Source: Synechococcus sp. (GTDB taxonomy: Bacteria > Cyanobacteriota > Cyanobacteriia > Thermostichales > PCC-7336). Taken from it: DNA of 31,706 nucleotides. Location: positions 1 to 31,706 of the forward strand of contig JBFRWD010000063.1 of NCBI GenBank assembly GCA_051439425.1, in the 5' to 3' direction. This document shows positions 392 through 30,352 of this stretch, in pieces (the first letter of the stretch is position 1; each line of letters begins with the position of its first letter). Made by a program: the position numbers and the translations under genes. The notes under the pieces were generated by a model. The model saw only the letters and a program-made list of their open reading frames with translations. It was not told the DNA's origin and ran no database searches.

Positions 392-2344
392 GTGTCGAAG
401 CTGTTTGTTAGTTACAGCCGTCAGGATGAAGCGCTCGCCGCAACCTTGATCGATGATTTAAAAACGCTTGGACATACTGTTTGGTTTGATCGGGAGCTGA
501 GTGGAGGCCAAGCCTGGTGGGATCGCATTCTGACTAACATTCGCGAATGCGAAGTGTTTGTATTTGTGTTGAGTGAGAACTCTCAAAGCTCCACTGCTTG
601 TAAGCGCGAATATAGGTATGCCGATGCGCTGAGGAAGCCCATCTTACCAGTATTGCTGGCAGACGGGATTAACGTTAACTTGTTACCTCCTGCTCTCGCA
701 AAAGTTCAATATGCAGACTATCGGAAGCGTGACAGTACAACAGCGCTTCTCCTCGCCAGAGCATTCATTACGCTGTCACCCCCTAGTCCGTTACCCGATC
801 CGTTGCCCGATCCGCCCAGCGCACCGATTTCTCACCTTGGCGGCCTGCTGGAGCAAATCGAATCGTCTGCCAACTTGAGTTTAGAAGCTCAAAGTGTTTT
901 GTTGCTCGATCTGAAAAGGGGGTTGCACGACTCTAGAACCCGCACAGATACCTTGATTTTGTTGGATAAATTCAAGAACCGGCGCGACATCTATGCCAGC
1001 ATTTTCGATGAAATTCATGACTTACTTGAATCCTTTTGTGAAGAGGCAGCGGAGACACAGGAGCAAATCACTCGAACTGCTGCCCAACCCGCCCAACCCT
1101 CCGATAATTCACCAGACCAAGCCAAACCAAACCAACCTCTGAGTGAGCCTATTCCTCCCGTTCCAGAAGCTGTTGCAGATTCGCTGCCTGAACTTCGAAT
1201 GTCGTCTGTAACGTCCGAACGAGCGCCTTCCACCCAGTCGATTGGCAAACCTATCGGGACTACACGGCAACCGCCGAGGGTCTTGAAGCAGAACGAGCCA
1301 ACACAACCCCCTGTGCTGCCTGTTCCACCACGAAAAGAATTTTCCAGTGCATCAGAAACTGAACCTGCTGGTGAGAGCGAAACTGGCCAGCCAACATCTT
1401 TGCCAGCGAGCAACCTTTCGAGACGTCGGGTTCTAAAATTGCTGGGATTTGTTGTTGGAGGAGGATTGGGAACTGCCTGGTTGGTAGAAGCTCTGCGTCC
1501 CAAGAAAGTTGAGTATACGGTGGTTACGGTTGACGAGGAGGGCAATAGAAATGAGCCAGAGCCACGGCAAAACAAATATCGCAGCGTCGATTTGGGTAAT
1601 GGAATACAGATGGGAATGGTGAATATCCCGGAGGGTAATTTTTTGATGGGGTCGCCAGAATCTGAGGAGGGCCATAACAATAACAATAACGAGGGGCCTC
1701 AACGGGATGTGATGGTGCCGTCTTTTTGGATAGGGCAGTTTCAAGTCACACAAGCTCAATGGCAGGCTGTAGTTGAATTACCCAAAGTCGAACACGACTT
1801 GGATTCCGCTCCTTCACACTTTAAAGGTGACGAACTCCCCGCTGAACAGATTAATTGGTGGGAGGCTACAGAGTTTTGCAATCGCTTGAGCGCAGCAACT
1901 GGCCGCACCTATCGCTTGCCCAGCGAAGCGGAATGGGAATATGCCTGTCGGGCGGGGACAACCACACCGTTTCATTTTGGCGAGACGATTACAACCGACC
2001 TGGCGAACTACAAGGGCAATTACACCTTCGCTTCTGAGCCGACAGGCGTGGGTCGCCAACAAACCACCCCTGTCGGGAGCTTTGGGGTGGCCAATGAGTT
2101 TGGGCTCTACGACATGCACGGCAACGTGTGGGAGTGGTGTGAGGATGCCTGGCATGAAAATTACGATGGCGCGCCCCTAGGGGGAACCCCCTGGATAGAA
2201 GGAGGAGATAGTAGTAGAAGGGTGGTGCGCGGTGGATCTTGGGTCAACTATCCTAGGAACTGTCGCTCGGCTCGCCGTGCCTGGTTCGACTCGGACGACG
2301 GGGACGACTTCATCGGCTTCCGTGTGGTGTGTTCCTCGGCGTGA
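392..2344 (+). CDS. TIR-domain / Pro-rich linker / TM / FGE-sulfatase (SUMF1, CLec-fold) multidomain protein
   Basis: N-terminal LFVSYSRQD...VWFDREL..G..WW..I...I..C..FVFVLS..S..S..CKRE is TIR_2-like. A hydrophobic stretch follows RRRVLK. C-terminal FLMGS, RLPSEAEWEYACRAG, NEFGLYDMHGNVWEW, RGGSW and GFRVV are FGE-sulfatase motifs. GTG start. Confidence 0.9.
   Translation: MSKLFVSYSRQDEALAATLIDDLKTLGHTVWFDRELSGGQAWWDRILTNIRECEVFVFVLSENSQSSTACKREYRYADALRKPILPVLLADGINVNLLPPALAKVQYADYRKRDSTTALLLARAFITLSPPSPLPDPLPDPPSAPISHLGGLLEQIESSANLSLEAQSVLLLDLKRGLHDSRTRTDTLILLDKFKNRRDIYASIFDEIHDLLESFCEEAAETQEQITRTAAQPAQPSDNSPDQAKPNQPLSEPIPPVPEAVADSLPELRMSSVTSERAPSTQSIGKPIGTTRQPPRVLKQNEPTQPPVLPVPPRKEFSSASETEPAGESETGQPTSLPASNLSRRRVLKLLGFVVGGGLGTAWLVEALRPKKVEYTVVTVDEEGNRNEPEPRQNKYRSVDLGNGIQMGMVNIPEGNFLMGSPESEEGHNNNNNEGPQRDVMVPSFWIGQFQVTQAQWQAVVELPKVEHDLDSAPSHFKGDELPAEQINWWEATEFCNRLSAATGRTYRLPSEAEWEYACRAGTTTPFHFGETITTDLANYKGNYTFASEPTGVGRQQTTPVGSFGVANEFGLYDMHGNVWEWCEDAWHENYDGAPLGGTPWIEGGDSSRRVVRGGSWVNYPRNCRSARRAWFDSDDGDDFIGFRVVCSSA
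2228..2344 (+). other. Candidate DGR variable region (VR) at the 3' end of the FGE/CLec domain
   Basis: Between the invariant RGGSW and GFRVV codons, the non-conserved positions are mostly NNC/NNT/NGG codons (GTC AAC TAT..AGG AAC..CGC..GCC TGG TTC GAC..GAC GAC GGG GAC GAC TTC). This is what adenine mutagenesis of AAC/AAT/AGG template codons would give. Confidence 0.5.
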
Positions 2345-2528
2345 TTCTCCTTCCCTTTATTTTCTAACCCTGTAACCCTTTACACTCGACTTTATTCACT
2401 CAAAATAATTCGAACGGGGTTTAGATCGCCCATAAACGAGCTTCCCATTATTTAAAAAGCCTACGATTTAGCTAACCGCTTTACTTCTCTCCGGTGAATT
2501 CTATCCACTTCAACAGCCAGTCAGTAAA

Positions 2529-3515
2529 TCATCCAGCCGCCGCACGCGAGTCGAGAAAGACTCCCATTGTGCGGAATTTTTGATATCGCTCTTCCCGGAG
2601 TTCTCGGCCACTCATCGCCGATAGTTCGTTTAAGTGGCGAGACCAGGCCTTCTTCAAGGCATCGGCCGCTGTCAGTGGAGACTGATGAGCACCTCCAATA
2701 GGTTCCGGCAAAATCTCGTCAATAATGCCCATCCCTAACAGGTCTTTAGCCGTAATCTTGAGAGCTTCTGCCGCCCGAGAAGCCTTACTGGCATCCTTCC
2801 ACAAAATTGCCGCGCAACCCTCGGGAGAAATCACCGAATAAACCGAATGCTCGAACATAAGCACGCGATTGCCCACACCAATCGCCAGGGCACCACCAGA
2901 GCCCCCTTCGCCAATAATCGTGCAGATGACCGGCACTTCCACTTCAAACAACTCGCGTAAGTTAACGGCGATCGCCTCCCCCTGACCGCATTCTTCCGCC
3001 TCGATGCCCGGATAGGCCCCCGGAGTGTCGATCAATGTCAGGATAGGGAGCCGAAAGCGATTGGCATGTCGAATCAGTCGCAAAGCCTTCCGGTATCCGG
3101 CTGGATTGGGCATACCGAAATTACGCAACACGTTGTCTTTGGTGTCGCGCCCTTTTTGATGACCCATCACCACCACCGGACGGTTCTCCAAACGAGCCAA
3201 ACCCACAACCAAAGCCCGATCGTCGCAACCGTGGCGATCGCCGTGCATTTCGAACCAGTCGTCACAGATGGTCTGGATGTAGTCAAGGGTGCTGGGGCGG
3301 CGGGGATGACGAGCCACCTGCAATCGCTGAGCGGGGGTGAGTCGTAGAAAAATTTCCTTCCGTAATTCAGCCGCCCGCTGTTCTAATTCGCGGATCTGAT
3401 CGCTGGCCTCTAACTCGTTCTCGTCTGCCAGAGAGCGAATTTCTTCGATGCGCTGTTCGAGATCGGCAACGGGCTTCTCAAAACTCAGCAACATGCGATC
3501 GGATGCCTTGGCCAT
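2529..3515 (-). CDS. accA: Acetyl-CoA carboxylase carboxyltransferase alpha subunit
   Basis: Motifs [43 protein letters not shown] and [14 protein letters not shown]. Confidence 0.98.
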
Positions 3516-8024: not shown

Positions 8025-9395
8025 ATGACGCCGCTGAGCCTTTTCTCTCGAACGATTACTTGTTTTTCCATTCTTGTCGCCACCCTTACGACTCCTTCGC
8101 TGACAACACCTGTCCTCGCCAATGAATCCGAGGATGCGCAAGCACTCGTGGATAATGTTGTGCGATTGATCGACAATCAGCATCTCGACAGCCCTGCTCT
8201 ACCTGCCGCGTGGGAGCGCCAGCGGGAACAACTGCTCTCCCGCACCTATACCGATGAAACAGAAGCCCGAGCTCACATCGCCCGGGCTTTGGAATATCTA
8301 AACGATCCATACACTTATTTGCTATCACCTTCCGAGTTTGAAGCAATGCAGGATAGCGTAGCTGGGGATGCTGCATGTATCGGCATTCGCTTGGTGCTAG
8401 GTTCGCGAGGTGCGCCCACCGTTTCAGCCCCTCCTTTACTGGGATCACCAGCGTTTTACTCGGGAATCCAACAGGGAGACGTCATCGTGGCTGTCGATGG
8501 CAGGAATAGCGAAGCATGGACTCCCGGGCAAACGTTGCAGCACATTCAGGGACGTGAAAACAGCACCGTTCAACTGACGTTGATGCGGAATAGCCAACGC
8601 ATTGAGGTTGAGGTCGTTCGGACAAACTTGTCCCAGCCATCAGTGACCTATTCGGTGCGCAGTTACCAAGACGAGAGTAACCGCGAGCGACAGGTGGGCT
8701 ATATCAGGCTGGCTCGGTTCGACGATCGTGCCGCTGAAGATATGAAGGCGGCCATAGTTGAACTGGAATCTCGATCGGTTGATGGCTACGTACTCGATCT
8801 ACGCTCCAATCCGGGGGGACTATTAGGGGCAGGGACAGCGATCGCCGAATTGTTTTTAGATGGAGAAGCGATCGTTACCGTGCAGGATCGCGACAGGGTC
8901 CGCAGAATAGTCGACCGAAAAGCTCCCATGACGAGTAAACCATTAACGCTACTAGTGGATGGGGGATCTGCTAGCTCCAGTGAAGTATTAGCCGGTGCCC
9001 TGCGCGATGCAGAGCGGGCAACTCTAGTAGGAACTCGAACCTTCGGGAAGGGGGTAGTGCAAACACTGTACGTACTGCCAGACGATTCCAGTCTGGCCAT
9101 CTCTACGGCCAACTACCGCACACCAAACGGTCACAACTTGCATGGTGTTGGGTTGCATCCTGACGTGACTGTCGCGATTACCAATACCGAATTTGCTATG
9201 CTGGCTCAGCACGATCCTCAATACAGCGCGGCAGTTGACTCCCTATTTGGCCAATCCCCCTCATCTCCCACAACTCCAGGAACCGGTCTCGCTGAATTGG
9301 CCCGAGAGGCTGTAGGCATGGATGCTGAAAGCAGTCCTGCGCCTGTGGATGTGGCAACGACAGCGATGGTTCCCTTACCCCTACCATCTGAGTAA
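8025..9395 (+). CDS. C-terminal processing peptidase, S41 family (CtpA/Prc-like) with signal peptide and PDZ domain
   Basis: LNDPYT, PDZ domain (SPA...GI..GD.IVAVDG), GYIRL..F, DLRSNPGGLL, SASSSE (catalytic Ser), GTRTFGKG (catalytic Lys) and G..PD. Confidence 0.93.
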   Translation: MTPLSLFSRTITCFSILVATLTTPSLTTPVLANESEDAQALVDNVVRLIDNQHLDSPALPAAWERQREQLLSRTYTDETEARAHIARALEYLNDPYTYLLSPSEFEAMQDSVAGDAACIGIRLVLGSRGAPTVSAPPLLGSPAFYSGIQQGDVIVAVDGRNSEAWTPGQTLQHIQGRENSTVQLTLMRNSQRIEVEVVRTNLSQPSVTYSVRSYQDESNRERQVGYIRLARFDDRAAEDMKAAIVELESRSVDGYVLDLRSNPGGLLGAGTAIAELFLDGEAIVTVQDRDRVRRIVDRKAPMTSKPLTLLVDGGSASSSEVLAGALRDAERATLVGTRTFGKGVVQTLYVLPDDSSLAISTANYRTPNGHNLHGVGLHPDVTVAITNTEFAMLAQHDPQYSAAVDSLFGQSPSSPTTPGTGLAELAREAVGMDAESSPAPVDVATTAMVPLPLPSE

Positions 9396-9686
9396 CGTCA
9401 GCTCGATCTCGGTAGAGCTTCGAATCACGAGAAAAGACAACCGCCTACCCATTCCGTTGCAAACGATATCAGCGGTTTCTCACAGGTAAACGCAGAGCTA
9501 ACATGCTCGACCGGTCGATAAAACCGAGGAAAATACTGAAATTTAATAGCAAGAACCATTGAAATCCGCAAATACCGGTTGTTCTGTAAATAGCGAACGT
9601 CACGGTTCCTACAGGAGAAACGCGCAACACCGATGTAGGCTATTCTTGTTAACTTTCTTCACGATTGACCAACCAGGAGGGCCATA

Positions 9687-10871
9687 ATGAGCGAATCTGT
9701 TGAGACGATCGCAGCCCATGGCGGCACGCTGATTAACCGCATCGCCACCGCAGAACAGCGCGCCGACATTCTGGCGAAAGCAGATTCTTTGCCCAAAGTC
9801 GCTATTGATGCCCGCGCCCAATCCGATCTTGAGATGATCGCGATCGGTGGGTTTAGCCCTCTTGAGGGGTTTATGGCTGAAGCAGATTATTCGTCTGTCG
9901 TCACCGATATGCACCTGAGTAACGGCGTGGCCTGGGCTATTCCCGTTGTACTACCGGTGACGGAAGCGGTAGCCGACGGGCTGGAAATCGGTCAAACCAT
10001 CGGTTTGACCAACGCTGACGGACGCCTCCTCGGCACCATGGAACTGACTGAAAAGTTTGTTCCCGATAAAGAGAAAGAAGCACTACACGTCTACCGCACA
10101 ACCGAAGACAAGCACCCCGGCGTCAAAGTCATTTACGAACAGGGTAACGTCAACTTGGCTGGCCCTGTAATTCTGCTAGAGCGCGATCCTCACCCTCTAT
10201 TCCCTTCCTACCAAATCGACCCTGCGGAATCCCGCAAGATGTTTGTGGAGAAGGGCTGGAATACGGTCGTTGGTTTCCAAACCCGTAACCCGATCCATCG
10301 CGCTCACGAATATATTCAAAAGTGCGCTTTGGAAATTGTTGATGGTTTGTTCCTCCATCCTCTGGTGGGTGCAACTAAGAGCGATGACATCCCCGCAGAT
10401 GTTCGTATGCAGTGCTACGAACTGATGATGGAGCATTACTTCCCCCAGGATCGCGTCACTCTCGCGATCAACCCTTCCGCGATGCGGTACGCCGGTCCTC
10501 GCGAGGCGATTTTCCACGCCCTTATTCGTAAGAACTACGGCTGCACCCACTTCATCGTGGGCCGCGACCACGCTGGTGTTGGCGACTACTACGGCACCTA
10601 CGATGCTCAGCACATCTTTGATGAGTTCGAGCCCGGCGCACTGGGAATTACCCCTCTCAAGTTCGAGCACGCCTTTTTCTGCAAGAAGACCGGCACCATG
10701 GCCACATCCAAGACCAGCCCTGCTGGTCCCGAGGATCGCGTTCACCTCTCCGGTACCAAAGTGCGAGCCATGCTGCGCGAAGGTAAGACTCCCCCTCCCG
10801 AGTTCTCTCGCCCTGAAGTAGCTGCACTGCTAGCAGAAGTCATGTCTGCTCGCGTAGCACAGCCCGTATAG
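9687..10871 (+). CDS. sat: Sulfate adenylyltransferase (ATP sulfurylase)
   Basis: [36 protein letters not shown] and LSGTKVR motifs. AGGAGG RBS upstream. Confidence 0.98.
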
Positions 10872-12985: not shown

Positions 12986-13233
12986 GGCTTTACATTTTGT
13001 ATCGTCATGCCCATGCCCTTCTCCCCAAAATACTAAACTGACAATGTCAAGTTTTGTAAGCTTTACTCATTTCCAGTTTAAGTTTCTAAACTTAACATCC
13101 CGTCCTTTACACTGAAACGTGCGAGCGCTCGATCTTTCAGCGATCGCCATTCAGAGCCAGGTGACAATTTATATTTTCTTTGACGCCTGTTTTTCACTGC
13201 AAACCTCTTTTTGCAATCCATTTAGAGTAAGCC

Positions 13234-13752
13234 ATGACCGAAGCTACGAGCACAGTTGAAGCTCCCAGTATGGGACGCCGTACCCTTTTGACCGCCATGT
13301 TGGGTGGCTCCGTTGGGGTTGTAGCCCTGGGAGCGTTGTATCCCTTCGTGAAATATTTCATTCCTCCGTCCTCCGGTTCCGGCTCCGGCGGCGTTCTGGC
13401 TTCGGACAAGTTGGGCAACCCCATTAGTATTTCCGCAACCTTGGCGTCCAACCCCGCAAAAGCCCGCGTTCTCACCCAAGGTCCCAAGGGCGATCCCACC
13501 TATGTCGTCATCGACGATGCTCAGGTGGCCAACTACGGAATTAACGCAATTTGTACCCACCTGGGTTGTGTTGTGCCCTGGAATGCTGGCGCTGACCTGT
13601 TTAAGTGCCCTTGTCACGGCTCTCAATACGCACCCAATGGCAAGGTCGTGCGCGGCCCTGCGCCTAAGTCCTTGGGCCTGGTGGCAGCTTCTGTGGAAGG
13701 AGACAACGTGCTCTTCTCCACCTGGGAAGGTGAAGACTTCCGCGACGCCTAA
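13234..13752 (+). CDS. petC: Cytochrome b6f Rieske iron-sulfur subunit
   Basis: Tat-like MGRR plus a TM segment, Gly/Ser hinge, GDPTY, CTHLGC and CPCHGS boxes, and RGPAP.SL. Confidence 0.97.
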   Translation: MTEATSTVEAPSMGRRTLLTAMLGGSVGVVALGALYPFVKYFIPPSSGSGSGGVLASDKLGNPISISATLASNPAKARVLTQGPKGDPTYVVIDDAQVANYGINAICTHLGCVVPWNAGADLFKCPCHGSQYAPNGKVVRGPAPKSLGLVAASVEGDNVLFSTWEGEDFRDA

Positions 13753-13839
13753 CTTATCTTTTTGGGCAGTTTGGCTTCCTGAATCTAAAGAACCAAGCTG
13801 CCGTTCTGTTGACGATACTTTCGGTCTTAAATCGCTCCC

Positions 13840-14823
13840 ATGATTAGAATCTTGCTTACGGCGATCGCCTGCGTAGCCCTTCTCTTCTCCTCGGCGAACC
13901 AGGCATCTGCTTATCCCGCTTACGCCCAGGCTGCTTACGACAATCCTCGTGAAGCCACCGGTAAAATTGTTTGTGCAAACTGCCACCTGGCCCAGAAAGC
14001 CACTCAGCTGGAGCTGCCCCAAGCAGTTACTCCCGGTCAGGTATTCAAAGCCACCGTTAAAATTCCCGTTGACACGTCCGTTCAGCAGCCCACCGGTGAT
14101 GGGTCTTACGGTGCTTTGAATGTTGGTGCGGCAATTGTGTTGCCGGAAGGTTTCCGCATGGCCACCCCTGAAGAAATGGGTGAAGAGCTGTTTGCGGAAA
14201 CGGAAGAGTTTTACATTCAGCAGTACAACGACGATCATCCCAACATCCTGGTTGTGGGCCCGATTGGCTCTCCTGAAGACCAAGAAATTGTTTTTCCCGT
14301 CATGGCTCCCGATCCTGCTGAGGACGAGTCCGTTGCCTTTATGAAGTACTTGGTCTCTGCCGGGGGTAACCGCGGTCGCGGTCAGGTGAATCCCGATGGT
14401 AGCATGACCAATAACAATGCCTTCAAGGCTGCTGCCACCGGTCGTGTTTCCGCCATCACTGAAGTGGCTGACCCCTTCTCTCCCCCCTCTGATGGCCCTG
14501 CTGCTCGCGTTGACCTGAGCAACTATTACTCTCCTGTCAGCATCGTCACCATTGACACTGCTGCTGGCCCTGTTGACGAGATCGTTCCTGCTGGCCCTCA
14601 ACTGCTGGTTGGTGTAGGTGACTCCGTTGAGGAAGGCACTTTGATTACCAATGACCCCAACGTTGGTGGCTTCGGTCAAGCCGAGCGGGAAATCGTTCTC
14701 CAGAATCCCACCCGTGTCAAGTGGTTGATTGCGTTCTTGGCTGCTGTTTCATTGGCTCAGATCATGCTGGTGCTGAAGAAGAAGCAAATCGAGAAGATTC
14801 AAGTGGCAGAAGGTTTCGTGTAA
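13840..14823 (+). CDS. petA: Apocytochrome f
   Basis: Signal peptide, mature N-terminus YP..AQ, NPREATGKIVCANCH heme motif, GGNRGRGQ, NVGGFGQ and a C-terminal TM with LKKKQ. Confidence 0.98.
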   Translation: MIRILLTAIACVALLFSSANQASAYPAYAQAAYDNPREATGKIVCANCHLAQKATQLELPQAVTPGQVFKATVKIPVDTSVQQPTGDGSYGALNVGAAIVLPEGFRMATPEEMGEELFAETEEFYIQQYNDDHPNILVVGPIGSPEDQEIVFPVMAPDPAEDESVAFMKYLVSAGGNRGRGQVNPDGSMTNNNAFKAAATGRVSAITEVADPFSPPSDGPAARVDLSNYYSPVSIVTIDTAAGPVDEIVPAGPQLLVGVGDSVEEGTLITNDPNVGGFGQAEREIVLQNPTRVKWLIAFLAAVSLAQIMLVLKKKQIEKIQVAEGFV

Positions 14824-15173: not shown

Positions 15174-17585
15174 ATGACTCAAGCGATATCGACTCCCACC
15201 GAGCAAACAGGACCTCTCAGTCCTGAGGAACTCCGCAATATCGATGCCTATTGGCGAGCTTGTAATTACTTGGCGGCGGGCATGATCTACCTCAAAGACA
15301 ACCCATTGCTGAAAGAGCCCTTGGAGGCGAAGCACGTCAAGAAGCGGTTGCTGGGTCACTGGGGAGCCTCCCCTGCTTTGAGCTTTAGCTACATTCACCT
15401 CAATCGTCTGATTAACAAATACGATCTCAGCGCGATCTTTATGGCAGGTCCCGGACACGGTGCCCCTGGAGTCATCGGGCCAGTGTATCTAGAGGGAACG
15501 TATTCGGAGTACTACCCCGATAAGGGCGAAGACGAAGAGGGCATGATGAATCTCTTCAGGTGGTTCTCATTCCCCGGCGGTATCGGTAGCCATTGCACCC
15601 CCGAGTTACCGGGTTCGATTCATGAAGGGGGGGAATTAGGCTATAGCCTGTCCCATGCCTATGGTGCTATTTACGATAGTCCGGAGCTGATAGTGGCCTG
15701 CGTCGTTGGAGACGGCGAAGCGGAGACTGGGCCGCTAGCCACTGCTTGGCACTCCAACAAGTACGTCAATCCCATCAGAGACGGGGCTGTCTTGCCTATT
15801 CTCAACCTGAACGGCTACAAAATCGCGAATCCAACGCTGCTATCTCGTATTTCCAAGCGAGAGCTGAACAGCCTGTTTGAAGGGTACGGCTACAGACCGT
15901 ATGTGGTTGAAGGAGACGATCCGCTGGAGATGCACCAGAAAATGGCGGCCACGATGGAGAAGTGCGTCGACCATATTCGCGAACTCCAAGCGGAATGTCG
16001 CCGTACAGGGGAGCCCAAGCGCCCCATGTGGCCGATGATTATTCTCCGTACCCCGAAAGGCTGGACGGGGCCAAAAGATGTAGACGGTCATAAAGTTGAG
16101 GGCTTTTGGCGGGCTCACCAAGTGCCGATGGGTGGCATGCATAGCAATCCCGAGCACCTGCAATTGCTAGAAACTTGGATGAAGGGCTACAAACCCGAAG
16201 AGCTGTTTGATGACAACGGCACATTGATGCCCGAACTGAAGGCTTTAGCACCTACCGGTCACCGTCGCATGAGCGACAATCCAGTGGCCAATGGTGGTCG
16301 CATTCGCAAAGCTCTTTGTATGCCAGACTTTCGCGATTTGGCTGTTGATGTTCCGACCCCCGGCACCGTCGAGGTCGAGAACACTCGCGTATTGGGCTAT
16401 CTCTTACGAGAAGTCATGCGCAAGAATATGGACAACTTTAGGGTGTTTGGTCCTGATGAGACGGCTTCCAACCGACTGCAGGCTCTGTATGAAGTCACCA
16501 AGAAAGCCTGGATGGCCGATTACTTGCCTGAGGATGCCGACGGTAGCGAGATGTCCCCCGATGGTCGGGTGATGGAAATGTTGAGCGAACATACTTTGCA
16601 GGGGTGGCTGGAGGGCTATTTACTGTCCGGTCGTCACGGATTCTTCCACACCTACGAAGCATTTGCCCATGTGGTGGATTCGATGTTTAACCAACATGCC
16701 AAGTGGTTGGATATCTGCAAGAAGGAAGTTCCCTGGCGAGCTCCAGTGTCTTCGCTCAATATCCTGCTGTCTTCGTTGGTGTGGAGACAGGATCACAACG
16801 GCTTCAGTCACCAAGATCCCGGCTACATCGATTTGGTAACGAATAAAAGCGCGGATGTGGTGCGTGTGTATTTCCCCCCAGATGCAAATTGCCTGCTTTC
16901 GGTCGCCGATCACTGCTTGCGCAGTACCGATTACATCAATGTGATTGTGTCGGATAAGCAGAAGCACCTGCAGTATCTGACGATGGAAGAGGCGATCGCC
17001 CACTGTACGAAGGGATTGGGCATTTGGGAATGGGCCAGCAATGATGACTGTGGTGCATCTCCCGACAATCCGGATGTCGTCATGGCCTGCTGTGGCGATA
17101 TTCCGACAATGGAGTCGCTAGCGGCTACTTCAATCTTGCGGGAGGAGTTTCCCGACTTGAAGGTGCGGTTTATCAACGTGGTTGACTTGCTGACCTTGGT
17201 GGATGAAAAAGAGCATCCCCACGGGTTGTCGAATCGCGACTTCGATACCCTGTTCACTCCCGACAAGCCGATTATGTTCAACTTCCACGGCTATCCCTGG
17301 TTGATTCACAAGCTGGTGTATCGGCGCAGCAACCAGGAACGCATTCACGTGCGGGGATACAAGGAGAAAGGCAACATCAACACGCCGCTGGAACTAGCGA
17401 TGGAGAACCAGATCGATCGCTTTAATCTCGTTATCGACGTCATCGATCGCGTTCCGTCGTTAGGCTCTCGGGCTGCTTATGTGAAAGAGCGGATGAAGAA
17501 TGCCATCATCGAGCACACCCACTACGCATTCACCTATGGAATGGACAAACCGGAGATTACGAACTGGAAGTGGCCTCATAGCTAG
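15174..17585 (+). CDS. xfp: Xylulose-5-phosphate/fructose-6-phosphate phosphoketolase
   Basis: [22 protein letters not shown], the TPP motif [11 protein letters not shown]...N, FGPDET.SNRL, LSEH and [12 protein letters not shown]. Confidence 0.97.
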
Positions 17586-17605
17586 CTATCGACGATAGCG
17601 CTGGA

Positions 17606-17642
17606 GGAAGCTGAGTTGAAGGCTTGGCTTCCTTCTTTATTT
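17606..17642 (+). terminator. Probable terminator after xfp
   Basis: GGAAGCTGAG-TTGAAGG-CTTGGCTTCC followed by TTCTTTATTT. Confidence 0.6.
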
Positions 17643-17715
17643 CGGGGACAACAGCTGGGGATGTATGGCGTCCGCTTTCAGGTCTGGAGTACCAAGGCAG
17701 CTCAAACCCTTAATG

Positions 17716-17809
17716 TGTAGCATTTGCCATTTAGTTCGGACAACCGCTTCCGATCGTAGTAAGGGTTGAATCTCGCTGAGATGTCCGCAGTGGCATGGCC
17801 GCGGCTACA
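17716..17809 (+). repeat. Dispersed repeat family 1 copy (94 bp)
   Basis: TGTAGCATTTGCCAT...ATGGCCGCGGCTACA with inverted termini, collinear with the copies at 11034 and 25183. Confidence 0.85.
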
Positions 17810-17973
17810 CAAAGAGAGGTGGTTAGAAAACTCTCCATTTTGACTGTGGCAGGGATGAGTCGGTTGTTTATCGATCTTTCGATTCGAGACCATGCCGAAA
17901 ACAGCTGTGGAGCTTACAGATTACGTTCAAGCAGCTGCGCCGTTAATTTTGAATTAATAGAGGGGGCGTCATT

Positions 17974-18612
17974 GTGAGTTTGAATCTCTATTTGCTCAGG
18001 CATGGCGAGACCACTTATAGCCAGAGGGGAGGTTATTGCGGCAGGCTCGACCCCGAGCTGACGTCGTCCGGATTGGCAATGGCACAAGCATTTTCTGATG
18101 CCTACCGTCAGCTCGAATGGGCTGCCGTATTTGCCAGTCCGATGAAACGCACGCTCGCTACCGCCAATCCCTTATGTGCTGCAACTGGCATGACCCCGCA
18201 GTTGCGGGATGGCCTGAAGGAAATTGACTACGGGAATTGGGAAGATCTGACCCACGACATCGTGCGGGATAAATATGCGCATGAATATGTCGCCTGGATG
18301 ACGGAACCGGCTTGGAATGCTCCAACTGGCGGTGAAACGGCTGTTCAGGTAGCCAGTCGTGCCGATCTGGTGATTGCCGAGATTCAGGAGACGTTTCCAG
18401 ATGGCAACATTCTGGTGGTGTCTCATAAAGCCACTATCCGCATTATTTTGTGCAGCTTGCTGGGGATCGATTTGGGTCGCTATCGCGATCGCATCGAAAT
18501 GCCCGTAGCATCCGTCAGCGTTGTCACATTCGGTCGCTACGGTCCGATGCTGCAGCGACTGGGCGATCGCTCCCACTTACCTGAAGCCCTTCGCAATCGA
18601 GCGGGGACATAG
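17974..18612 (+). CDS. Histidine phosphatase family protein (phosphoglycerate mutase-like)
   Basis: LLRHGET, SP.KR...TA, LKEIDYGNWE, GGET and LVVSH motifs. GTG start. Confidence 0.92.
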   Translation: MSLNLYLLRHGETTYSQRGGYCGRLDPELTSSGLAMAQAFSDAYRQLEWAAVFASPMKRTLATANPLCAATGMTPQLRDGLKEIDYGNWEDLTHDIVRDKYAHEYVAWMTEPAWNAPTGGETAVQVASRADLVIAEIQETFPDGNILVVSHKATIRIILCSLLGIDLGRYRDRIEMPVASVSVVTFGRYGPMLQRLGDRSHLPEALRNRAGT

Positions 18613-18618
18613 ATAGCC

Positions 18619-19821
18619 ATGAATATTCTGATTCTCAATGCTGGCTCCAGCAGCCAGAAAAGTTGTTTGTACCGCTTTGATGGCAGCGTACCGGACTTAC
18701 CACCCGAGCCATTGTGGAGCGCACATATTGAGTGGTCGGAACACTCTGGCCAAATGGTCGTCACGGCGAGTGAAGCAAGGATTGCCGTCGAACTGGAGAC
18801 AGGCGATCTGGCTACGGCCATCTCCAAAATGTTGGACACGCTGCTGGTGGGGGACACGCAGGTTCTCGATGACCTGGCAGAGATAAACGTGGTGGGTCAT
18901 CGGGTAGTGCATGGGGGGTCGAATTACTCTCAACCAATCGCAATCGATAACGATGTGAAAACGGCAATCGCGGACTTGAGCGTGCTGGCTCCGGCCCACA
19001 ATCCGGCAAATTTGGCCGGGATTGAAGCGATCGAGCATTGTTTGGGTGATGTGCCTCAAGTGGCGGTCTTTGACACGGCGTTTCATAGCCAAATGCCTCT
19101 AGCATCAGCGGTTTATCCCATTCCCTACGGGTTTTTCGAGGACGGCATTCGACGCTACGGCTTCCACGGTATCAGTCACGACTACTGTGCCCATCGGGCG
19201 GCGCAGCTTGTGGGCCAGCCTCTTGAGGAGTTGAAGCTGGTTAACTGCCACTTGGGCAACGGCTGTTCGCTGGCGGCAGTCGATGGTGGCATTGGTATCG
19301 ATACCACCATGGGATTTACGCCGCTGGAAGGATTGATGATGGGGACCCGCAGCGGATCGGTCGATCCGGCGATCGCGATCCATCTCATGCGGACAAAGGG
19401 ATACGACGCCGACCGCTTGGATACCATGCTCAACCGGGAATCGGGGTTGAAGGGAGTGTCTGGAATTTCGGGCGATATGCGCGAGATTGCAGCGGCGATC
19501 TCGAATGGCAATGAGCGGGCTCAGCTAGCCTTTGACCTTTATATCCATCGGTTGAAATCTGCGATCGGAGGAATGGTAGCGAGTTTAGGCGGTCTGGATG
19601 TGCTTGTGTTTACAGCGGGGGTTGGGGAGCATTCGGCTATGGTTCGAGAACAGGTGTGTAGGGGGTTGGAGTTTCTGGGGGTGACTCTGAATGATGCCCA
19701 AAACTCAGCATCGCCCGTGGACACCGTCATTTCTGGACCGGACTCGGCAGTAACTGTGCTGGTGATTCATACCGAAGAAGACTGGGCGATCGCCAAAGCC
19801 TGTTGGCAACTGCGCCAGTAG
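18619..19821 (+). CDS. ackA: Acetate kinase
   Basis: NAGSSS.K, GHRVVHGG, APAHNP, VFDTAFH, RRYGFHGISH, HLGNGCS, TTMGFTPLEGLMMGTRSG and FTAGVGE. Confidence 0.97.
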   Translation: MNILILNAGSSSQKSCLYRFDGSVPDLPPEPLWSAHIEWSEHSGQMVVTASEARIAVELETGDLATAISKMLDTLLVGDTQVLDDLAEINVVGHRVVHGGSNYSQPIAIDNDVKTAIADLSVLAPAHNPANLAGIEAIEHCLGDVPQVAVFDTAFHSQMPLASAVYPIPYGFFEDGIRRYGFHGISHDYCAHRAAQLVGQPLEELKLVNCHLGNGCSLAAVDGGIGIDTTMGFTPLEGLMMGTRSGSVDPAIAIHLMRTKGYDADRLDTMLNRESGLKGVSGISGDMREIAAAISNGNERAQLAFDLYIHRLKSAIGGMVASLGGLDVLVFTAGVGEHSAMVREQVCRGLEFLGVTLNDAQNSASPVDTVISGPDSAVTVLVIHTEEDWAIAKACWQLRQ

Positions 19822-19887
19822 CTTCGCTAGCATTGGTGCTTGGGGGATGAGAATGAGGGAATTTTCCGCCAAATATTAAGGACATTC

Positions 19888-21540
19888 ATGGATAAGCCTG
19901 TCATGTTGACCATCGATGACGATCCTGCCGTATTGCAGGCGATCGCTCGGGATTTGCGCAAACAATACGGCGATCGGTTTCGGATTGTGAGAGCCGATTC
20001 GGGCGCGAAGGCATTGGACGTCGTCCAACAATTGAAACTGCGAGGCAGTACAGTGGCCCTGTTTCTGGCAGATCAACGCATGCCGGAAATGAGTGGAGTG
20101 GAATTTCTCAATCAGGTGTCGGAGATCTTTCCGCAAGCCAAGCGTGCTTTACTGACGGCTTACGCAGATACCAATGCAGCCATTGATGCCATTAACACTG
20201 CTCAGTTGGATTACTACTTACTCAAACCCTGGGATCCACCGGAAGAAAAACTGTATCCGATATTGGATGACCTCATTCACGATTGGCAGGGCACCTTTAA
20301 ACCCGAGTTTCAAGGGGTGAAGGTGATTAGCGATCGCTGGTCGCCGCAATCCCATGCATTGCGAGACTTTCTTGCCCGGAACCAAATTCCGTATCGCTGG
20401 TTGGACATTGAAACCAATACCGAAGCTCAACAACTGGTCTCCTGCGCCGGGGAAACCGAAAACCCTTGCCTGCCGCTGGTTCTATTGCCAGATGGTGAAA
20501 AGCTCGTCAAACCCAGCCCAGCCGACTTAGCCCAGCATGTGGGTATGCAAACCGAAGCAACCAATCCCTTCTACGACTTGGTGATTATTGGGGGTGGCCC
20601 TGCCGGACTGGCCGCAGCTGTCTATGGGGCATCGGAAGGTTTGCGAACGGTGATGCTGGAACGCGAGGCTCCGGGCGGACAAGCAGGGACTAGCTCGCGC
20701 ATTGAAAACTATTTGGGCTTTCCGGTGGGATTGAGCGGCAGCGATTTGGCTCGCCGAGCGGTGACTCAAGCCAAGCGGTTCGGAGTTGAAATCTTGAACC
20801 CTCAGGAAGCCACCTCCATTCGGCTGGAGGATAACTACCGCGTTGTGACGTTGGCCGATGGCAGCGAGATTAGCTGTCACTCAGTGATTTTGGCCATGGG
20901 AGTATCGTGGCGCAGGCTTACAGTCCCGGGGATTGAGAAATTTACCGGTGCTGGAGTGTATTACGGAGCAGCGCAAACGGAAGCAGCGGCCTGTCAAGAC
21001 GAGGATGTGTATGTGGTTGGCGGGGCAAACTCTGCCGGACAGGCAGCTATGTATTTCTCCAAGTACGCCCGTAAGGTCCGCATGTTGGTGCGTGGCGAGT
21101 CGCTTACCAAGAGCATGTCTCAGTACTTGATCGACCAAATTGATGGGACGGACAACATTGAGGTACTACCGTTCCACAGCGTCATGGAAGCGAAAGGGGA
21201 CGATCGCTTAGAAGCCATTGTGGTGAAGGACTCTCAGACGGGTGAGCTAAAAAACTTCGACACCAATTCTCTGTTCATCTTTATTGGGGCGACACCTCGC
21301 ACAGAATGGCTGGATGGAGTGGTGCAGCGAGATGGGCGAGGCTTCTTGCAGACGGGACCGGATGTCACCAATGGCAGCCCTTGGCCATTAGAACGCGATC
21401 GCTTTTTGTTGGAAACCAATATCCCCGGCATCTTCGCGGTAGGAGATGTGCGATCGGGCTCGGTGAAACGGGTGGCGTCGGGGGTAGGTGAAGGATCGAT
21501 TTGCGTCCAGTTTGTCCACCGGCACCTAGCTACGGTCTAG
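19888..21540 (+). CDS. Response-regulator receiver fused to a thioredoxin-reductase-like FAD/NAD(P)H oxidoreductase
   Basis: REC domain: IDDD, ADQRMP (phospho-Asp), LLTAY, KPW. TrxB-like domain: GGGPAG, GGQA..SS.IENYLGFP, GGANSAGQAA, FIFIG, PGIFAVGDVR. The likely start MDKPV has AAGGA upstream. Confidence 0.92.
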   Translation: MDKPVMLTIDDDPAVLQAIARDLRKQYGDRFRIVRADSGAKALDVVQQLKLRGSTVALFLADQRMPEMSGVEFLNQVSEIFPQAKRALLTAYADTNAAIDAINTAQLDYYLLKPWDPPEEKLYPILDDLIHDWQGTFKPEFQGVKVISDRWSPQSHALRDFLARNQIPYRWLDIETNTEAQQLVSCAGETENPCLPLVLLPDGEKLVKPSPADLAQHVGMQTEATNPFYDLVIIGGGPAGLAAAVYGASEGLRTVMLEREAPGGQAGTSSRIENYLGFPVGLSGSDLARRAVTQAKRFGVEILNPQEATSIRLEDNYRVVTLADGSEISCHSVILAMGVSWRRLTVPGIEKFTGAGVYYGAAQTEAAACQDEDVYVVGGANSAGQAAMYFSKYARKVRMLVRGESLTKSMSQYLIDQIDGTDNIEVLPFHSVMEAKGDDRLEAIVVKDSQTGELKNFDTNSLFIFIGATPRTEWLDGVVQRDGRGFLQTGPDVTNGSPWPLERDRFLLETNIPGIFAVGDVRSGSVKRVASGVGEGSICVQFVHRHLATV

Positions 21541-21650: not shown

Positions 21651-23090
21651 GTGCTTTGCAAAGAATCGCTATTGCAGATGAAGCCCTTCCAGACACTCCC
21701 TCAAGAGCGGTTGGACTGGATTTGCGAAAACGCCGAGCCAATTCATCTGGAGGCGGGAGACGTACTGGTGCGCGAGGGGGAGCGATCGAAGGGATTTTTT
21801 ATCCAAATTTGCGGGCAAACCACGATCTCTCGTCTCAGCCACGGCACCGATATGCCCATAGGTCGTCACCTTAGCCCATCATTTTTTGGAGAAATACAGG
21901 TTCTCACCCACGACCTGGTACCTGTCACACTGACAGCCGATACACCGACCCAGTTGTACCGACTCAACTGCAATGACTTTCTAGAGATTCTGCACAGTTG
22001 TCGCGAATTTGAAAAAGACATCTTTCGCACCGTGGAACAACGACTCCGTGGTTTGGAGTCGTTTATTCAAAACCGCGAGAAGATGGCTGCCTTAGGGACT
22101 CTCGCCGCCGGTTTGGCCCACGAACTCAACAATCCTGCAGCAGCCCTAGTGCGTGTTTTGAAGGATATCAAACCTGCCATCTTGGAACTGCAGCGCATGA
22201 ACCTAGTCTATGGTCAGCAGCAGCCGGATGACGAGCACACCGAGCAGTGGGAAGCATTGCGAGATCGTGGGTTCGAAGCCATCTTGCACCCCAAAAACGA
22301 TCCGCTAGCTCAGGGAGATCGCGAAGATGCTCTGACTGAGTGGCTGGAGGATTATGGAGTAGAGGATGCTTGGAAGCTGGCAGAACCATTGGCAGCCGGG
22401 GAGGTCGATCTCCAGATCTTGGATGGGCTAACGGAACGGTGGCGAGATACCTCAACAGAGTTGAGGGAGATGGGGTTGAGATGGCTAGCGCTGTCGTTTG
22501 ATGTGATGAGTATGGTGGTCAACGGTCTGGATGGGGCAGAGCGGATTTCGACGCTGGTGCAGTCGATGAAGTCATACTCCTATATGGATCGGGCCGCACA
22601 ACAAGAAATTGACATTCATGACGGAATTGAGGATACATTGCGGCTATTTGCATTCAAGCTGAAGCATGGAATTAAGGTAGACCGCATGTATAACCGGGAG
22701 CTGCCCAAGTTAATGGCTTACGGTAGCGAGTTAAATCAGGTATGGACCAATTTGCTCGATAACGCGATCGATGCGCTGAATGATGGCATTCCAGACGGAT
22801 CTAAACCCAAGATTTCCATTCGCACCTGCCTAAAAAATAACTGCTTGAGGGTGCAGGTAGTCGATAATGGCCCCGGCATTCCCCCCGATGTGAAAGAGCG
22901 CATTTTAGATCCGTTTTTTACGACAAAGCCCATGGGGAAGGGAACGGGATTGGGGTTAGATGTTGTGCGTCGAATTGTTGAAAATCGCCACGGTGGCAGT
23001 CTGTTAATCGAATCCGTTCCCGGTAAAACCTGCTTTGAAGTGTTGTTGCCACTGGCGGAAGTGCGATCGCCCTCTCTACAGGCAAGTTAG
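21651..23090 (+). CDS. Soluble sensor histidine kinase with N-terminal cyclic-nucleotide-binding (cNMP/CAP_ED) domain
   Basis: cNMP domain: L..GDVLVREGE...FFGEI. HisKA: AGLAHELNNP. HATPase: NLLDNAIDA, DNGPGIP, PFFTTK..GKGTGLGL. No TM segment is evident. Confidence 0.93.
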   Translation: MLCKESLLQMKPFQTLPQERLDWICENAEPIHLEAGDVLVREGERSKGFFIQICGQTTISRLSHGTDMPIGRHLSPSFFGEIQVLTHDLVPVTLTADTPTQLYRLNCNDFLEILHSCREFEKDIFRTVEQRLRGLESFIQNREKMAALGTLAAGLAHELNNPAAALVRVLKDIKPAILELQRMNLVYGQQQPDDEHTEQWEALRDRGFEAILHPKNDPLAQGDREDALTEWLEDYGVEDAWKLAEPLAAGEVDLQILDGLTERWRDTSTELREMGLRWLALSFDVMSMVVNGLDGAERISTLVQSMKSYSYMDRAAQQEIDIHDGIEDTLRLFAFKLKHGIKVDRMYNRELPKLMAYGSELNQVWTNLLDNAIDALNDGIPDGSKPKISIRTCLKNNCLRVQVVDNGPGIPPDVKERILDPFFTTKPMGKGTGLGLDVVRRIVENRHGGSLLIESVPGKTCFEVLLPLAEVRSPSLQAS

Positions 23091-29170: not shown

Positions 29171-30352
29171 CTAACGAGCCGCAGCCGCCAGATGTACTTC
29201 TGCCCCCAAACCAGCCGCCATCTCCGCCGGAGTAATGCGACCATCGCGATCGGTATCTAGCGCATCGAAGACTGCATCGGTACCGGCCCACTCCTCGCGG
29301 GCAATAGAGCCATCACCATCCAAGTCATAGACTTTAAAGATGTCCTCTGCTGCATGGCTCAGGGTATTTTCCCCTTCCAATTGGGCCAGACGTCGAGCTA
29401 GCGAAGACTCCAACGCTTCCAATGCCTTCGAGAACTTGTCGATGCCCCCAGCCAGCTTGTCCGTGGCCATCTGATTCTCGGCGTGCATGCGATCGAACGT
29501 GGCTCGATCCATGGCAATTTTGTCGAGCGCCATATCAACCGCTTTGGCTGGGTCGAGCTTGCGAGGCAGCTCCTCGTCTTGAGAACTCAGCTCGTCCAGC
29601 AACTTGGGAGAAATGGTCAGCAGATCGCAGCCGGCCAACTCGCAAATCTCGCCAATATTGCGGAAGCTCGCCCCCATGACTTCGGTCTGGTACCCAAACT
29701 TTTTGTAGTAGTTGTAGATCTGCGTAACAGAGACAACCCCTGGATCCTCCGGGGCAGGATAGCTATCGCGGCCAGTGCTCTGTTTGTACCAGTCGAGAAT
29801 GCGGCCCACAAAAGGAGAGATTAGGGTCACCTTGGATTCTGCACAGGCGATCGCTTGGTGCAATCCAAACAGGAGAGTGAGATTGCAGTGAATCCCCTCG
29901 GTTTCCAACACTTCAGCTGCTTTAATGCCTTCCCAGGTGGAGGCTATCTTAATCAGAACCCGATCCCGCGAAACCCCTTTGGCTTCGTACTGGGCGATAA
30001 TATCGCGGGCTTTTTCCAGAGTTGCCTCGGTGTCATAGGACAGCCTTGCATCGACTTCTGTAGACACGCGACCGGGAATGATATTGAGAATTTTGAGACC
30101 GAAGGCAACGGCAAGGCGATCGAATGCCAGACTCGCGACATCTGAAGGACTTGCTGCAGCTCCCAAATCTTGGCGGGCTTGCTTGAGGGTGTCATCAACA
30201 ATGTCGCTGTATTCAGGCATCTGAGCCGCAGCAGCAATCAGCGACGGATTGGTCGTGGCATCGCGAGGAGTAAAGGCTTCAATGGCATTGATATCCCCTG
30301 TATCCGCCACAACAATGGTGTATTGGCGCAGTTGCTCGAGCAGGCTGGGCAT
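29171..30352 (-). CDS. tal: Transaldolase with C-terminal EF-hand pair
   Basis: [57 protein letters not shown] and MGASFRN. C-terminal loops [12 protein letters not shown] and [12 protein letters not shown]. Confidence 0.96.

Follow-up and report, generated by a model that had tools for sequence, protein, structure and literature searches.

The window analysed here, a contig of 31,706 nucleotides (nt) from a Synechococcus sp. genome (GenBank assembly GCA_051439425.1, contig JBFRWD010000063.1, positions 1 to 31,706), carries near its beginning a gene for a protein with an N-terminal TIR domain and a C-terminal FGE-type C-type lectin (CLec) domain. The 3' end of this gene resembles the variable region (VR) of a diversity-generating retroelement (DGR), and the stop codon is followed by what appears to be the remains of a DGR cassette. 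The features of the target gene and its 3' flank, compared with a complete reference cassette (locus L017, described below), are as follows.

392..2344, plus strand: TIR–linker–hydrophobic segment–FGE/CLec gene, 650 aa, with a GTG start immediately 3' of an in-frame TAG
404..733, plus strand: TIR domain, residues 5-114 (Pfam PF13676 TIR_2, 2.2e-24)
1418..1486, plus strand: S-R-R-R-V-L-K motif (residues 343-349) and hydrophobic 19-residue segment (347-365; Kyte-Doolittle 1.73)
1613..2329, plus strand: FGE-sulfatase (CLec-type) domain, residues 408-646 of 650 (Pfam PF03781, 1.4e-55)
2220..2344, plus strand: putative variable region, 125 nt, colinear with the L017 template repeat at 9993-10117 and ending exactly at the stop codon
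2345..2431, plus strand: spacer homologous to the L017 VR-avd spacer, 74/87 identical
2432..2470, plus strand: bAvd 5'-end remnant, 13 codons; the ATG start is replaced by ATA, and codon 8 is TAA

The TIR_2 match of the protein scored 86.7 bits against a gathering cut-off of 28. Glu73 of this domain was aligned with the Glu of the C-W-D-E stretch in Cat1 (9mud, E=0.0084), which we take to be the catalytic residue of that NAD-cleaving TIR, and a match to 8qlo had E=0.0027. The protein formed a singleton cluster in the homologue search. The FGE-sulfatase match spanned profile positions 4-254 of 255, and the homologues carried source names such as 'formylglycine-generating enzyme family' and 'SUMF1/EgtB/PvdO family nonheme iron enzyme'. 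Both observations would suit a catalytic domain of the FGE/SUMF1/EgtB type, of which the tail would simply be the C-terminus. This is the least credible of the explanations considered, because the TIR fusion, the hypervariable tail and the DGR context would fit the non-catalytic use of CLec domains described for DGR targets. In a plasmid collection, tblastn returned 255 records with FGE-domain matches, the closest of which was 55.7% identical over the full domain.

Related gene ends were collected by scanning species-representative genomes with an alignment of six related tails and the pattern [IVF]GFRVVCSS. The scan gave 124 stretches, 76 of which passed tblastn and yielded 64 loci; the pattern requires the last codons of the repeat, and template repeats (TRs) or VRs with other endings lie outside this sample. 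The best identity to the window tail among the 64 loci was 66%, which shows that the source genome itself is not in the scanned collection. No orthologue of the target was found among them, tblastn matches to the TIR region being only 28-31% identical (L032, L034, L043). Matches rich in Asn (9-12 Asn per 38 residues), as in template repeats, occurred at five of the 64 loci (L017, L018, L026, L043, L054). The first of these, on contig JBFRWN010000088.1 of another cyanobacterial metagenome-assembled genome, contains a complete DGR in the order target-bAvd-reverse transcriptase (RT)-TR.

8357-8481: cis VR, the final 125 nt of a target encoding a 1306-aa WD40+FGE protein
8568-8918: bAvd (1.5e-18)
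8915-9973: RVT_1 reverse transcriptase (2.3e-20)
9993-10117: TR

Between the L017 TR and its own cis VR there are 23 differences, 18 of which fall on TR adenines. Homology of the window gene to the same TR begins at 2220, 8 nt upstream of the start of the VR (2228) in the initial annotation. Over the 125 nt there were 26 mismatches, which affected 17 of the 31 TR adenines and 9 of the 94 remaining bases (Fisher p=6.1e-7). Codon positions 1-2 held all 17 adenine mismatches in the VR/TR alignment. Third positions accounted for seven of the nine non-adenine mismatches (CCC/CCT, GCG/GCT and GGT/GGC, for example), as expected from divergence between two related cassettes. When both strands of all 64 loci were compared with the window VR, eight places showed no more than 22 non-adenine mismatches, and the L017 TR was the best adenine-tolerant match among them.

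The same positions stood out within the protein family. Among 119 homologues, 102 had tails of the same spacing, and in these the mean column entropy was 3.37 bits at the 17 codons with an adenine in position 1 or 2 of the L017 TR, and 0.97 bits at the 20 other codons compared (Mann-Whitney p=2.5e-7). The closest relative, a 680-aa orthologue with TIR_2 and FGE domains (P0060), was identical to the window protein at 108/125 residues of the TIR domain (86%), 136/215 of the linker and 188/242 of the FGE domain (78%). Within the VR, identity was 19/21 at the non-adenine codons and 2/17 at the adenine-templated codons. At the remaining 15 of these 17 codons the two proteins differ, which shows that the tail was still being rewritten after the lineages had separated. 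Differences between sister genomes, which the initial annotation had expected at such codons, were therefore found at the protein level, in one orthologue, to be concentrated there. Because the mismatches to a TR are adenine-specific, because the family is hypervariable at adenine-templated codons and because the orthologue differs almost only there, the data support the reading of 2220-2344 as a variable region of the DGR type, carried by an FGE-type CLec domain in a protein with a TIR domain, as had been proposed from the window alone.

The base and codon composition of the tail was also unusual. Positions 2228-2344 comprise the last 38 codons and the stop of the open reading frame (ORF) at 392-2344, and the translation agreed exactly with the one given initially. 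Every codon listed there as variable was present, with the trivial correction that GAC occurs five times and not four. The A-poor, NNC-type character attributed to this segment was likewise confirmed: adenine made up 12.0% of the 117-nt tail, compared with 24.6% of the whole gene and 23.1% of the window, and 13 of the 14 NNY codons at variable positions ended in C. In the same codon boxes of 18 window genes, third-position C and T were found 1325 and 1278 times (51% C; binomial p=0.0011), and the gene upstream of the tail had 71 C and 102 T in NNY codons (41% C; p=8e-5 against the 13/14 of the tail). The NNC third positions in the tail have not equilibrated.

These results bear on another possibility, that the tail reflects ordinary divergence among paralogues, with point mutations accumulating under diversifying selection and no retroelement ever involved. 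FGE-sulfatase domains are indeed very abundant (at least 8000 matches in the homologue search), and surface loops vary without DGRs too. An origin of this kind is nevertheless very improbable given that the mismatches are tied to the adenines of a real TR, that the third-position C is retained in almost all of the variable NNY codons and that a DGR spacer and an avd stub lie directly downstream.

A separate feature was noted just upstream of the VR. A G5-AA-C5 inverted repeat lies within coding sequence at 2179..2192 (plus strand), about 30 nt upstream of the block homologous to the repeat, and has a counterpart in the L017 cis target at about 8316-8333. Apart from these two genes, it was present in two of the 29 cyanobacterial VR loci examined (L001, L019). 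Around it, over about 60 nt, third-codon positions were 79-89% identical between the window and the L017 cis target, L001 and L019, and this stretch lies outside the region covered by the L017 TR.

Similarity to the reference cassette did not end with the coding sequence. A single blastn high-scoring segment pair joined window 1788-2467 to L017 7925-8603 (E=2.5e-113), and the intergenic part alone (2345-2467) was 84.6% identical to L017 over 123 nt (E=1.5e-32). The intergenic part also matched the avd start of another locus, L013 (84% over 45 nt, E=1.7e-6), and the avd start was colinear in five cassettes (L017, L006, L007, L013, L014). The peptide encoded by the remnant, INELPII*KAYDL, shared 10 of 13 residues with MNELPIIQKIYDL of L017 Avd. 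Only codons 1-13 of bAvd (PF22296) were recognizable in the window, which makes this a remnant and not a gene; an intact bAvd is presumably a four-helix bundle of about 110-120 aa. Identity to L017 dropped to 45% past 2470, and 58 nt further on lies the end of a convergent gene that bounds the space where a cassette would be.

2529..3515, minus strand: accA, acetyl-CoA carboxylase carboxyltransferase alpha (Pfam)

Identity to L017 was 79% in the block preceding the VR, 85% in the spacer and 79% in the avd stub, values too similar to show an order of events. Elsewhere in the window no trace of a cassette was detected. The best ungapped match of the tail to any second site was 54/117, neither RVT_1 nor bAvd was found by Pfam among the 20 scanned window ORFs, and tblastn of the window gave a best value of E=0.84 with the L017 RT and the 13-codon stub only with L017 Avd. 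The initial annotation was therefore right that the window holds neither a TR nor an RT. Its further step, from this absence to a remote target diversified in trans, is not supported as written, since it missed the 126 nt of spacer and avd stub 3' of the stop codon. Because the 3' flank consists of a VR-avd spacer and a dead avd stub, the target either was itself a cis target at one time or was copied from one, with 126 nt of 3' flank carried along; the rest of the cassette is missing here.

A second decayed cassette was observed at L013 (10302-10484), where avd codons 1-61 of 116 follow a VR-type gene end. No RT match was found anywhere in that locus, which extends about 9.6 kb past the avd codons. 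Truncated cassettes are thus not unique to the window.

Whether the window VR is still being rewritten is a distinct question. We lean slightly towards a fixed variant that would no longer be rewritten, because what is left of a diversifier at this site is dead, because two remote VR-like gene ends in the L017 genome fit the L017 TR poorly (12 non-adenine mismatches for L019 and 15 for L012) and because the literature contains paralogues with leftover TR-VR homology and no diversifier. The alternative is an active remote target: an intact DGR elsewhere in the same genome would provide RT, Avd and a matching TR and still rewrite 2220-2344 in trans, and the avd stub would be a passenger of the duplication that gave rise to this copy. 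Several observations speak for such a system. The ORF, its VR scaffold and the 87 nt immediately 3' of the VR are intact and 85% identical to their counterparts at a working cis target; the NNC third positions are undrifted; and the differences from the orthologue P0060 imply rewriting after the split. An avd or RT match was found in 18 of the 64 loci (RT in 16, avd in 15). Among loci with cyanobacterial titles and at least 3 kb of downstream sequence, an RT match was found in only 3 of 27, a set to which L017, L018 and L026 belong although their matching stretch is the TR; in most cyanobacterial loci, then, a VR-type gene end has no RT close by. Trans-acting DGRs and remote variable proteins are among the systems described in published work (PMC10907252, PMC7517822). 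Against trans rewriting stand the poor fit of the remote ends in the L017 genome, the published case of all3226 in PCC 7120, a paralogue that retains TR-VR homology but has no diversifier, and the fact that no TR or RT of the source genome was seen, the sole local cassette trace being broken. On balance, we regard trans rewriting as a possible but less likely account of the locus.

Two side observations were made on the reference cassette. About 2 kb downstream of it, at 12249-14669 of L017, lies a gene for an 806-aa protein with matches to an RNase_T exonuclease and a STAND/AAA-type NTPase, which fits the conflict-system neighbourhoods described for such DGRs. A 12-nt motif was conserved about 25 nt 3' of three TRs (L017 10140-10151, L018 1523-1534 and L026 280-291). 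The motif also occurred 3' of the gene-embedded VR in L019 (5085-5096), whose 3' flank is similar to the one next to the L017 TR, not to the one next to the L017 cis VR. It may be part of the DGR RNA, and L019 may have acquired additional flank from a template. When the window was probed with the motif for a hidden TR flank, no match at up to one mismatch was found.

The hydrophobic segment of the target protein bears on how the VR could be displayed. Residues 347-365 form the sole strong hydropathy peak of the 650-aa protein and are preceded by the S-R-R-R-V-L-K motif. Twin-arginine translocation (Tat) signals follow a consensus resembling S/T-R-R-x-F-L-K and continue into a hydrophobic stretch; here the Tat-like motif is internal and not N-terminal. 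Five relatives (P0060, P0081, P0094, P0112, P0114) have a comparable RRR motif and Gly-rich hydrophobic segment N-terminal to the FGE domain, placed between that domain and an effector (TIR or caspase). Residues 343-365 are probably a signal anchor that would place the TIR and CLec domains on opposite sides of the membrane. The relatives with TIR or caspase N-termini suggest that the order effector–anchor–lectin is conserved; the anchor layout may have arisen from a Tat signal peptide.

The explanation that we favour, and hold to be more likely than not as a whole, is that of a TIR–anchor–CLec sensor with a DGR-written tip, a former cis target that has no local diversifier. The product would be a single-pass membrane sensor with an N-terminal TIR domain, a Pro/Ser-rich linker, a hydrophobic anchor after a twin-arginine-like motif and a C-terminal FGE-type CLec domain. 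An AAC-rich TR, of the type still kept in the intact L017 cassette, would have been transcribed and then reverse-transcribed with random bases opposite adenines (mutagenic retrohoming). The mutagenized cDNA would have replaced the 3' end of the gene (2220-2344), randomizing about 17 codons on the ligand-binding face and leaving the scaffold untouched. The avd-RT-TR cassette would then have been lost locally, so that the spacer and 13 decayed avd codons remain. In the simplest model, the diversified lectin face outside the cell would bind a ligand and control TIR activity inside; the membrane topology and the role of the TIR domain as the output are inferred from the sequence.

Several points weigh against this explanation. 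The TR used for comparison belongs to another organism and is a stand-in, not the cognate repeat, with 9 of the 26 mismatches off its adenines; these nine are read here as cassette divergence. The cognate TR and RT of the source genome were never seen, and an unbroken ORF, a preserved scaffold and NNC codons that have not equilibrated fit recent rewriting as well as a young frozen copy. The DNA fold of 2300-2435 was no better than that of shuffled sequences (z=0.11), with no recognizable homing stem-loop 3' of the VR. The avd stub is short, and its protein match alone had E=0.068 within the window; its weight comes from its being colinear with the DNA match. Deletion of the cassette in place and copying of the 3' module with its flank cannot be told apart here; after copying, an intact DGR should still exist at another site, and this would speak for rewriting in trans. 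The membrane topology is only predicted, from one hydropathy peak and a Tat-like motif.

A more specific version of the favoured explanation may be called 'diversify, then lock'. The protein would be an analogue of a Toll-like receptor, with a cytoplasmic TIR domain, an internal twin-arginine anchor and an extracytoplasmic lectin tip randomized by a retroelement, and its specificity would have been frozen by a cassette deletion that left a 13-codon scar. We put this forward as a speculation that is unlikely to hold in full. If it were true, the avd stub would be direct physical evidence for fixation of a target by cassette loss after a useful variant had arisen, and the layout of effector (TIR or caspase), RR anchor and CLec domain would define a family of trans-membrane sensors programmable from outside.

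The other window neighbours are ordinary chromosomal genes of an oxygenic phototroph, including, beside accA, those for cytochrome f, phosphoketolase, acetate kinase and transaldolase (Pfam). No STAND NTPase or MoxR/vWA partner and no sulfatase was found by Pfam among the 20 scanned window ORFs. Genes for phosphoketolase, a histidine-phosphatase-family protein and acetate kinase are consecutive at 15174-19821 (plus strand). This row is followed 3' of acetate kinase by a response-regulator receiver fused to a pyridine-nucleotide-disulphide oxidoreductase (19840-21540) and, at 21651-23090, by a cNMP-binding histidine-kinase-type ATPase. The transaldolase (29171-30352, minus strand) has C-terminal EF-hand calcium-binding motifs (Pfam TAL_FSA with EF-hand_5/6/1). 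A mechanical ORF of 485 aa at 13222-14679 (minus strand) has no Pfam match, overlaps the cytochrome f gene (13840-14823, plus strand) in antisense and is most likely no gene.

The locus is also of wider interest. DGR-diversified TIR-CLec proteins are regarded as sensors of antigens or signals within bacterial conflict systems, and we know of no ligand for any of them. The predicted layout, with TIR inside and a variable lectin outside, offers a simple testable model of signal transfer across a membrane. A missing RT or TR near a VR does not by itself mean diversification in trans, and it is advisable to look for cassette scars in the flank before the term 'remote' is applied to a target.

Among the systems to which the target can be compared is the L017 cassette. 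From about 2160 onward the two sequences run in parallel at 74-85% nucleotide identity, through the 3' end of the target with its VR scaffold and stop codon, across the spacer and into the start of avd, and the L017 TR accounts for the variable codons of the window. The L017 target is, however, a WD40+FGE and not a TIR+FGE protein, its cassette is complete and it belongs to a different organism. The Treponema denticola protein TvpA and the Bordetella phage protein Mtd illustrate that the CLec fold tolerates massive variation at adenine-templated codons, TvpA being of the FGE subtype; both are located at a surface or on a phage tail and lack a cytoplasmic effector domain, and they are likened to the target here by description, not by sequence. 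With animal Toll-like receptors the likeness is one of working only: ligands are bound by a variable ectodomain, which a single membrane span connects to a TIR domain in the cytoplasm, as predicted for the target. The order of domains is reversed, the TIR domain of the target being N-terminal, the ectodomain is a lectin fold and not leucine-rich repeats, and the diversity would come from a retroelement and not from a gene family.

In multicellular bacteria, CLec/FGE targets that bear TIR or peptidase effectors have been described by Dore et al. 2024 (PMC10907252), where some DGR targets have transmembrane segments that place the CLec domain in the periplasm and where diversification in trans was shown by perfect matching at non-adenine sites. 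The window target resembles these putative antigen sensors in joining a CLec/FGE VR domain to a conflict-system effector. The published sensors were shown with a full genome and population reads, whereas the target described here is known from one contig.

In cyanobacterial DGR targets, according to Vallota-Eastman et al. 2020 (PMC7517822), TIR-like domains are one of the rarer kinds of N-terminal domain; the authors define remote variable proteins, and copies far from any RT occur. Their account includes a degraded DGR cassette in Anabaena sp. 90 and describes all3226 as a paralogue that still shows TR-VR homology and near which there is neither an RT gene nor an RT pseudogene. It also raises the idea that the components of diversification are removed once a good variant has been selected, on which the present locus bears as a clean example of a sensor losing its diversifier with the avd scar still attached. 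The window target is built in the same way, with a signalling or effector domain at the N-terminus and, joined to it at the C-terminus, a CLec domain in which the VR lies. Targets of the TIR-CLec kind, remote targets and cassettes in decay had already been published. Unlike all3226 as described there, the window target keeps an attached cassette stub, a spacer and 13 avd codons, that shows the local cassette context directly, and it is this avd scar attached to a target that is new here.

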